From the IMG/VR virus record IMGVR_UViG_3300025098_005131: a DNA stretch of 64,000 bases; one strand, given 5' to 3'. The notes beneath the pieces are model-generated. The model was not told where the DNA came from, ran no database searches, and was given only the letters and a program-made list of their open reading frames with translations. A program made the translations under genes and the position numbers. The DNA comes from a virus (taxonomy: Duplodnaviria; Caudoviricetes). This document shows positions 63,321-64,000 of this stretch, in pieces (within the stretch, counting starts at the first letter, position 1; every line of letters starts with the position of its first letter).

Positions 63321-63620
63321 TCATTTGCTTTTTCTTCTTCTCGATCTTGTTTTAGTTTTTTGTTTAACTTCAACTTTTTTCTCTTCAAGCTTTGACCTTT
63401 TTTCTTCTTTTTCTTTTTGAAAAGATTCTATAATGGATTTTTTAATAGCATTAAAATGGTCTTCATCCGGAGATTGAACTTTTCTATCATTGAGATATTT
63501 TTTAAGTTCAACAAAAGAATAATCTTGTTTTTTTAAAAGCTCTTGTTTTAAAAAACTTTCTAAAGAGAAGTTTTTTCTAGAGCAGAAAAGCTTATAACTT
63601 ATTAAATAGCTTTCTTTCAT
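63321..63620 (-). CDS. hypothetical protein with basic tail
   Basis: ATGA overlap with the upstream gene. Confidence 0.6.
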   Translation of the reverse strand: MKESYLISYKLFCSRKNFSLESFLKQELLKKQDYSFVELKKYLNDRKVQSPDEDHFNAIKKSIIESFQKEKEEKRSKLEEKKVEVKQKTKTRSRRRKSK

Positions 63621-63883
63621 TTTTGATACATCCTTTCTTGTAACAACTCAACTATAGACTCTTGAAAGTTTGGAGAGATTGCAATTTTTTTTAGTTCTTC
63701 ATCTGTATGTTTTTGATCATAGTGGTTTGAAACATTCTTTGCAATCTTAATAAAGCTTTTATTGAGAATATTTCTCACAGTCGAGTGATTCATCTTAATA
63801 CCTTCAGATGTCATCTTTTTAGCAATGTCATGAAGACGCATGCCTTTATACGAATTTACAGTTACATATTTTTTATTTTTCAT
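63617..63883 (-). CDS. HTH protein resembling sigma70 region 4.2
   Basis: GMRLHDIAKKM....MNHSTVRNILNKSFIKI. Confidence 0.6.
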   Translation of the reverse strand: MKNKKYVTVNSYKGMRLHDIAKKMTSEGIKMNHSTVRNILNKSFIKIAKNVSNHYDQKHTDEELKKIAISPNFQESIVELLQERMYQK

Positions 63884-64000
63884 TTAAGTATTCTTTCATG
63901 TCATCAGTAATTACAAAGTGTGATAAATTATTTTCAGATTCAGTAATTCCAAATCTTAATCTAATTATTTTTTCTTCTTTAGGCGTTAAAAGTTTTAAAG
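63873..64000 (-). CDS. 3' end of a sigma70-family sigma factor (truncated by the window edge)
   Basis: Manual translation LKLLTPKEEKIIRLRFGITESENNLSHFVITDDMKEYLNEK*, which is RpoD region 4.1-like (LTPRE.KVLRMRFG). Confidence 0.7.
   Translation of the reverse strand, partial: LKLLTPKEEKIIRLRFGITESENNLSHFVITDDMKEYLNEK

Follow-up and report, generated by a model that had tools for sequence, protein, structure and literature searches.

A truncated sigma-70 factor and an adjacent helix-turn-helix protein as a candidate two-subunit sigma of marine jumbo phages

Introduction

Sigma factors are textbook single-chain proteins, and we know of only a handful of two-subunit exceptions. In phages, T4 gp55/gp33 and SPO1 gp34/gp33 serve as two-subunit sigmas. 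T4 gp33 binds the β-flap of RNA polymerase and is not known to read DNA; no −35 element is known in the late promoters of T4, whose activation needs the sliding clamp. SigO-RsoA and Sig7-Sig8 were reportedly described as two-subunit (split) sigma factors by MacLellan et al. in 2008. Here, we analyse two genes at the end of a 64,000-nucleotide stretch of viral DNA (Duplodnaviria; Caudoviricetes; IMG/VR record IMGVR_UViG_3300025098_005131), called the window throughout. The first is a sigma-70 gene that stops after region 4.1, and the second, directly downstream, encodes an 88-residue helix-turn-helix (HTH) protein (called ORF2 here). We consider it likely that the phage makes a two-subunit sigma from the truncated sigma and ORF2, with ORF2 reading GTGTAA 17–18 bp upstream of TATAAT.

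A recent preprint names SigO/RsoA of B. subtilis and Sig7/Sig8 of Tn916 as known two-subunit sigmas (bioRxiv 10.64898/2026.10.01.756105), and Francisella MtvS1/2 is possibly another (PMC13627669). SigO-RsoA and Sig7-Sig8 resemble the phage pair in that the work of a sigma is shared by two adjacent, co-expressed genes, one for the −10 piece and one for the −35 piece. However, they are similar to extracytoplasmic function (ECF) sigmas and are split between regions 2 and 4, whereas the phage sigma is group 1/2-like and is split inside region 4, between 4.1 and 4.2. In contrast to SigO-RsoA, the small subunit has no detectable sequence similarity to any named family, and the element is a phage. 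In T4 gp55/gp33 and SPO1 gp34/gp33, as proposed here, a truncated phage sigma is joined by a small protein that stands in for region 4 on RNA polymerase. Unlike in gp55/gp33, the partner here is an HTH protein, the promoters have a conserved hexamer at the −35 position, and the sigma is far more complete than gp55. The T4 AsiA/MotA system is alike in another way: a phage DNA-binding protein reads a non-canonical −35/−30 element, and a sigma-70-type region 2 reads a TATAAT-like −10. T4, however, remodels the full-length sigma-70 of its host with AsiA, whereas this phage brings its own sigma, which already lacks region 4.2. Full-text literature searches found no description of this split-sigma system or of the GTGTAA promoter. 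Judged by sequence, the pair fits a two-subunit (split) sigma in the sense of adjacent, co-conserved genes that would jointly cover the functions of a sigma. Compared with the known split sigmas, the new aspects would be a primary-like sigma broken inside region 4, an HTH small subunit at the −35 position, and the coexistence of split and fused forms.

Results

The sigma gene runs off the end of the window. Its open-ended reading frame (63873–63998, minus strand) reads LTPKEEKIIRLRFGI and then a 23-residue tail, closing with TAA at 63873–63875. Region 4.1 corresponds to LTPKEEKIIRLRFGI and is followed by a nine-residue acidic linker and a tail helix with the conserved motif F-x-[IV]-T-x-[DE]-M-x-x-Y-L. 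The start of the gene lies outside the window, and the upstream DNA was recovered from contigs encoding an identical 88-residue protein, identified by exact look-up. This protein is present on 16 contigs, and three places from separate marine samples were fetched together with their upstream DNA. The complete gene (L001:9259–10011) encodes a protein of 250 residues (P0001) with regions 1.2, 2, 3, and 4.1, and it stops 23 residues past RLRFGI.

In a Pfam scan of P0001, Sigma70_r1_2 (PF00140, 37.2 bits; cut-off 22), Sigma70_r2 (PF04542, 77.3 bits; cut-off 24), and Sigma70_r3 (PF04539, 30.8 bits; cut-off 25.3) exceeded their cut-offs, and no r4 was found. Region 2 also matched TIGR02937 with 98.8 bits (cut-off 42.9), and its residues T91, Y92, A93, W95, W96, and Q99 (T-Y-A-x-W-W-x-x-Q) are invariant. 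Searched with the reading frame at the window edge, Sigma70_r4 (PF04545) gave 14.2 bits, below its cut-off of 24.1, and aligned only at profile positions 2–18 of 50, which is region 4.1. The best NCBIfam alignments of P0001 are with the RpoS and RpoD models over regions 1.2–4.1, and all score below the equivalog cut-offs. The top equivalog, TIGR02394 (rpoS), reached 188 bits against a cut-off of 378.7, so P0001 is not a member of this equivalog, and the alignment ends at position 243 of 285. The protein thus resembles RpoD/RpoS in these alignments, in the invariant core motif of region 2, and in a predicted −10 of TATAAT. It differs from them in its scores below the family cut-offs, in the missing region 4.2, and in a predicted −35 of GTGTAA rather than TTGACA. 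The 250-residue protein is a member of the sigma-70 family without the HTH of region 4.2. The original prediction, made from the window alone, had stated that region 4.1 ends early at a stop at 63873 and that the HTH that should follow is absent; both statements hold, and the upstream sigma regions 2 and 3 that a genuine sigma gene should have are present together with region 1.2.

Truncation is a property of the family. The homologues fall into more than 120 protein clusters with 58–99% identity, all of 247–254 residues, and none has Sigma70_r4. In the AlphaFold2 (AF2) model of the sigma (predicted local distance difference test (pLDDT) 80), two helices (193–211 and 215–225) form region 4.1, and a disordered acidic linker leads to a short helix (241–248). 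A tail motif, [FY]-P-[IV]-T-x-x-E-x-x-x-L, is kept in many sigma lineages and is missing from several. When aligned with hhalign, it falls on the start of the canonical region 4.2 recognition helix, with the first HTH helix deleted. The tail motif may therefore be a remnant of an old region 4.2.

The sigma gene and ORF2 are found together almost without exception. Scanning IMG/VR with the sigma alignment yielded 49 truncated-sigma loci, down to approximately 37% identity. An ORF2 homologue lies downstream on the same strand in all 49, adjacent in 47 and 450 nt away in the other two. The reverse scan with the ORF2 family found 238 IMG/VR loci, of which 80 were fetched for the linkage count. In 79 of these 80, a sigma without region 4.2 is located immediately upstream on the same strand and ends within 18 residues of the truncated-sigma profile. 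The linkage persists down to 35–40% sigma identity. The sigma and ORF2 are an obligate two-gene unit, and the synteny in related phages that the original prediction would lead one to expect is seen in both directions.

The sole ORF2-family locus of the 80 without a sigma within 2.4 kb on either side is L116:2372–2812. Its reading frame is open far upstream of the HTH domain, so that the protein may be extended at the N-terminus. Among higher-GC relatives, which form a third tier (L126, L128, L133, L140, L142, L145, L151, L153), the sigma and HTH genes are separated by a conserved open reading frame (ORF) of 66–95 residues. Its product begins with a hydrophobic helix, carries the motif D-L-N-x-R-L-x-x-L-Q-x-x-x-F in its C-terminal part, and could be a membrane-anchored regulator or an anti-sigma.

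In IMG/VR, the ORF2 family is represented by at least 238 loci, and its Atlas clusters have hundreds of members; ORF2 homologues form 27 clusters. The isolate phages of INPHARED contain no ORF2 homologue, and the best sigma matches there are approximately 40% identical. Approximately 185,000 GTDB species genomes gave four ORF2 hits, all on contigs of metagenome-assembled genomes (MAGs), which offer no clue to the host. The pair is widespread in uncultured aquatic jumbo phages.

The strongest evidence for the role of ORF2 comes from natural fusions. In P0305 (357 residues), the sigma and the HTH domain are encoded in one ORF. This ORF belongs to one of the four MAG loci, L159, whose 158-kb contig was binned with a Flavobacteriales MAG. 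In P0305, a linker of approximately 20–25 residues joins sigma regions 2 to 4.1 to the ORF2 domain (hidden Markov model (HMM) match at 260–340, E = 2e-18). P0307 (405 residues) is 54% identical to P0305 and has the same architecture, with the ORF2 HMM matching at 302–380 (E = 8e-19). The nearest unfused relatives stop directly after region 4.1. The ORF2 domain is thus directly C-terminal to region 4.1 in a single polypeptide in P0305 and P0307, and it is a separate gene in the window. The fusions indicate that, in function, the small protein corresponds to the C-terminal sigma module and occupies the usual place of region 4.2.

In the window, the two genes overlap, with the ATG of ORF2 positioned 8 nt ahead of the stop codon of the sigma gene. 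ORF2 is in the +1 frame relative to the sigma gene, and the junction is A-rich (aATGaaaaaTAAaaaatatg). The 11-nt overlap, the frame, and the A-rich junction had been noted in the original prediction and are reproduced by the ORF coordinates. The overlap probably couples the translation of both genes. Among lineages, the junctions vary: there are 11-nt overlaps with an ATG or a TTG start, ATGA, TAATG, or TGATG overlaps of 4 or 1 nt, and spacers of 2–38 nt, the longer of which have their own GGAG-type Shine–Dalgarno sequence. All three relative frames (0, +1, +2) are found. This diversity points to separately translated, often translationally coupled genes, and a frameshifted fusion is thereby excluded as the general mechanism. 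Positions 63400–64000 are present in contigs of four independent studies at approximately 96% identity, with 23 substituted positions, at most 25 differences per contig, and no indels. Thus, the split is not a sequencing error, and an error or frameshift that would join a canonical region 4 was rejected on the strength of the diverse junctions and the indel-free independent assemblies.

ORF2 contains MRLHDIAKKM...MNHSTVRNILNKSF, and its N-terminus is basic (MKNKKYVTV). The AF2 model (pLDDT 86) shows a disordered basic N-terminus and helices at 17–26, 33–54, 61–68, and 71–87. A long turn follows the first helix, and the putative recognition helix (33–54) opens with an invariant N-H-S-T-x-R-N. 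In 46 sequences with 29–94% identity to the window ORF, the residues M24, G28, N32, H33, R37, K46, and Q74 are invariant. They cluster at the turn and where the long helix begins, which is the pattern expected of a recognition helix. The N-terminus of ORF2, including the start codon, is conserved among relatives. ORF2 is, as modelled, a conserved HTH protein, in agreement with the HTH first recognised in its sequence.

The GTGTAA promoter motif was evaluated in the window and in relatives. The window contains 28 copies of GTGTAA-N15–19-TANNNT where 5.55 are expected, and none of 100 shuffles reached 28, which substantiates the GTGTAA promoters of the original prediction. In 22 of the window sites, GTGTAA-N17/18-TA[TC]AAT is located 17–87 nt upstream of the start of an ORF on the same strand. 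TTGAC-N16–19-TATAAT was found once in the window, which is the chance level. When all hexamers located 16–19 nt upstream of TATAAT were counted, GTGTAA at 17–18 nt took the top rank in the window; across 63 non-redundant distant loci (39% GC), it ties for that rank with TGTAAA at 16 nt, an overlapping hexamer shifted by one base. The tier 1 loci (102 kb) have seven GTGTAA-type sites (0.17 expected), and the tier 2/3 loci (350 kb) have 22 (0.22 expected), with no TTGAC-type site in either. By comparison, 20 control phage loci with other sigmas (124 kb) have no GTGTAA-type site (0.06 expected) and six TTGAC-type sites. The motif accompanies the sigma/HTH pair across phages of differing base composition, which suggests that the reader is encoded by the phage. 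The hexamer is single, asymmetric, and rigidly spaced, as would suit a monomeric HTH held on the holoenzyme. The link of the split sigma to the GTGTAA −35 is one of association: the motif dominates where the pair is present and is absent from the control loci.

A GTGTAA-type site also precedes the sigma gene itself (L001, approximately 9214–9243), and likewise in distant relatives, making positive autoregulation plausible. The promoter-like sites of the window have a perfect TATAAT, often with TAT before it. They form two subclasses. Approximately 14 sites, at 1340–16325 on the plus strand and 39021–40222 on the minus strand, have an 18-nt spacing (17 nt at 16297), an extra conserved element in the spacer (GTGTAA-w-T-w-AGATT-w-A ... 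TATTATAAT), and leaders of approximately 45 nt. The remaining GTGTAA sites have a 17-nt spacing and no AGATT. The subclasses may be two temporal classes or may mark the site of a second regulator.

Discussion

We propose the following model. The 250-residue, RpoD/RpoS-like sigma would be the first subunit, using regions 1.2, 2, and 3 to bind the core enzyme and the TATAAT −10 element and retaining region 4.1. The gene directly downstream would provide the second subunit, the 88-residue HTH protein, whose translation the 11-nt overlap probably couples to that of the sigma. ORF2 would dock on region 4.1, on the β-flap of RNA polymerase, or on both, in the usual seat of sigma region 4.2. Acting there as a monomeric HTH, it would read the asymmetric GTGTAA hexamer 17–18 bp upstream of TATAAT. 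The outcome would be a class of phage promoters apart from the bacterial TTGACA −35 consensus. The linkage, the junctions, and the fused relatives argue for the two-piece phage sigma that had first been suggested, and we regard it as the probable arrangement.

The interaction of the two proposed subunits was modelled with sigma residues 185–250 and ORF2. The complex scored 0.42, the best of three controls scored 0.00, the runs agreed in at least 76% of contacts, and the pLDDT of the partner was at least 65. Of 80 solved complexes, 58 reach the mark for such predictions, as do 2 of 110 mismatched pairs; scores of 0.60 or less include only 7 of those 80 solved complexes and both passing mismatches, so the support is weak.

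Several observations weigh against a two-subunit sigma. This weak pass is one of them. Other DNA-binding proteins of the phage could read GTGTAA. The sigma gene has a GTGTAA-type promoter itself, so something else must transcribe the sigma first. The remaining points concern the ancestry of ORF2. Pfam, PHROGs, and NCBIfam gave scattered sub-threshold matches and nothing consistent, a profile search of the PDB found nothing relevant, and Foldseek found nothing in the PDB at E ≤0.001. Structure searches of the AFDB clusters and the Atlas returned only uncharacterised members of the ORF2 family and generic HTHs (for example, WYL and IS6 N-terminal domains). In a wide VIA-align search, no match exceeded Z = 5, and LuxR/GerE-type HTHs scored Z = 3.1–3.7. 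Aligned by hhalign with 46 canonical region 4 sequences, ORF2 is in register with region 4.2 with a turn five residues longer, and the P values of 0.033–0.066 are not significant.

Other searches bear on the same question. The ORF2 of the window has no match to PF04545 or PF08281, and only one of 46 family members touched PF08281 (E = 0.02). The Pfam and PHROGs scans gave no match to MotA, AsiA, or any other named family. The ORF2 HMM had no match on region 4.2 in approximately 150 canonical sigmas. Solved sigma-4 chains compared with the ORF2 model gave a Foldseek E of approximately 5 and a template modelling (TM) score of 0.38. Two slight hints favour the two-subunit sigma. The hhalign alignment pairs H33, R37, and N38 of ORF2 with R584, R588, and Q589 of sigma-70. 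The nearest named neighbours of ORF2 in a protein language model are small viral Sigma70_r4 proteins (scores 0.80–0.87), which rank as a lead only. With a concatenated profile of the sigma tail and ORF2, the region 4.1 alignment was not carried into the ORF2 HTH, and the sigma's own tail took the start of the region 4.2 recognition helix. The ORF2 domain appears to equal region 4.2 by position, sequence searches do not place it in the region 4 family, and neither sequence nor fold comparisons show it to be homologous to canonical region 4.2. The separate HTH of the earlier claim is itself predicted by the fold model.

The alternative that survives best is an autonomous transcription factor. 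ORF2 would be a MotA-like activator or a repressor, co-expressed with the sigma without being a subunit of it, and the truncated sigma would act alone on strong −10 (TATTATAAT-type) promoters. Sigmas without region 4.2 can work on extended −10 promoters, and the perfect TATAAT with its frequent preceding TAT suits this explanation, as do the merely generic HTH similarity in fold searches, the lack of significant region 4 similarity, and the weak complex prediction. An independent factor would not be expected, however, as a C-terminal sigma module right after region 4.1, as in the fusions, nor to be linked to the sigma gene near-absolutely in both directions. One asymmetric hexamer held rigidly 17–18 bp from the −10 is also the geometry of a −35 reader fixed on a sigma. 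We therefore judge an autonomous factor to be unlikely, with a chance that still deserves consideration.

A modulator that does not read DNA is a distinctly poorer explanation, and we consider it improbable. ORF2 would in this case act on the phage sigma as an anti-sigma or a chaperone, or would inhibit the host sigma near region 4 or the β-flap, like T4 AsiA. Small proteins encoded beside sigma genes are often anti-sigmas, and the third-tier relatives have a small, putatively membrane-anchored ORF between the two genes. SPO1 Gp33, long called a sigma partner, was reinterpreted in 2026 as an inhibitor of the sigma-A holoenzyme (PMC13401047), which keeps a modulator alive as a minor rival. The invariant polar residues N32, H33, R37, and N38 at the start of the second HTH helix are, however, typical of base contacts, fusion to the C-terminus of a sigma is hard to square with an inhibitor, and the conserved motif at the −35 position needs a reader. 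Least probable of all is that both ORFs are joined in this phage into one full-length sigma by +1 frameshifting or transcriptional slippage at AAA TAA A: the window and its closest relatives do have the A-rich junction with a lysine codon before the stop, and fused proteins do occur in relatives, but the ATGA/TAATG overlaps, the spacers with their own Shine–Dalgarno sequences, the three frames, the conserved ORF2 N-terminus and start codon, and the lack of indel variants in independent assemblies mean that fusion is not needed for function and would give at most a minor isoform.

Returning to the two-subunit sigma, we lean, by a little, towards a wider account, in which a clade of jumbo phages detached the −35 module of a primary-like sigma, both split and fused forms survive, and the pair runs a GTGTAA-N17/18-TATAAT promoter class.

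Features of the window and its surroundings

The coordinates of the two genes, their overlap, and the promoter-like sites are collected in Table 1.

Table 1. Positions of the sigma/ORF2 locus and of GTGTAA-type promoter-like sites in the window.
Feature	Position	Strand	Basis
Sigma-70 gene, 3′ end	63873..64000	-	Last 41 codons and stop; last 128 bases of the window
ORF2, 88-residue HTH protein, proposed second sigma subunit	63617..63883	-	ATG ORF; AF2, alignment
Overlap of sigma gene and ORF2, 11 nt, ATGAAAAATAA	63873..63883	-	ORF coordinates
GTGTAA-N18-TATAAT promoter-like site, 44 nt upstream of ORF	1340..1369	+	Motif scan
GTGTAA-N18-TATAAT promoter-like site	1793..1822	+	Motif scan
GTGTAA-N18-TATAAT promoter-like site	2658..2687	+	Motif scan
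GTGTAA-N18-TATAAT promoter-like site	3669..3698	+	Motif scan
GTGTAA-N18-TATAAT promoter-like site	5794..5823	+	Motif scan
GTGTAA-N18-TATAAT promoter-like site	6870..6899	+	Motif scan
GTGTAA-N18-TATAAT promoter-like site	7745..7774	+	Motif scan
GTGTAA-N18-TATAAT promoter-like site	8039..8068	+	Motif scan
GTGTAA-N18-TATAAT promoter-like site	9787..9816	+	Motif scan
GTGTAA-N18-TATAAT promoter-like site	10551..10580	+	Motif scan
GTGTAA-N18-TATAAT promoter-like site	11693..11722	+	Motif scan
GTGTAA-N17-TATAAT promoter-like site	13984..14012	+	Motif scan
GTGTAA-N17-TATAAT promoter-like site	15727..15755	+	Motif scan
GTGTAA-N17-TATAAT promoter-like site	16297..16325	+	Motif scan
GTGTAA-N17-TATAAT promoter-like site	21533..21561	+	Motif scan
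GTGTAA-N17-TATAAT promoter-like site	24952..24980	+	Motif scan
GTGTAA-N17-TATAAT promoter-like site	26128..26156	+	Motif scan
GTGTAA-N17-TATAAT promoter-like site	27994..28022	+	Motif scan
GTGTAA-N18-TATAAT promoter-like site	39021..39050	-	Motif scan
GTGTAA-N18-TATAAT promoter-like site	40193..40222	-	Motif scan
GTGTAA-N17-TATAAT promoter-like site	40591..40619	-	Motif scan
GTGTAA-N17-TACAAT promoter-like site	41867..41895	-	Motif scan

Directly upstream of the sigma gene, just past the end of the window (L001:7416–9233), are genes for a Cpn60/GroEL-type chaperonin and a 5′–3′ exonuclease and a conserved ORF of 54–58 residues, and this synteny is conserved. The GTGTAA box of the sigma promoter is located inside this small ORF, in its 3′ end (coding ...EPKRVIIIEL). 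At the same place, another conserved small ORF is found in tier 2 relatives, ending in ...CYL-x-RELE-x-R.

Within the window, six tRNA genes (two Leu-taa, Met-cat, Thr-tgt, Lys-ttt, and Arg-tct) are located at 12608–18562, which is usual for large AT-rich phages. On the minus strand, the genes at 34600–46695 form a metabolic and replication block, encoding an ATP-dependent DNA ligase, a DUF2201 metallopeptidase/VWA protein with an AAA_5 ATPase, and a purine interconversion set made of an adenylosuccinate lyase-like protein, adenylosuccinate synthetase, and IMPDH/GMP reductase. In Bacillus phage Bc431v3 (JX094431.1 / NC_020873.1) and its relatives, the sigma matches the query in two pieces, annotated as separate ORFs (orf109 and orf108). 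The phage sigma is here interrupted in another way, possibly by an intron or an inserted gene.

Conclusion

If the two-subunit reading is true, a primary-like sigma has been broken inside region 4 with its DNA-reading half set free, and fused and split forms are available for comparison. Such a pair would demonstrate, in a natural system, that region 4.2 of a sigma can act in trans, and it would provide a ready-made transcription system with a non-canonical −35 element. The sigma, the 88-residue HTH protein, and a defined promoter together make a compact candidate transcription module. For the phages themselves, the reading would assign a function to a large orphan protein family and would predict a promoter code for abundant, uncultured marine jumbo phages.

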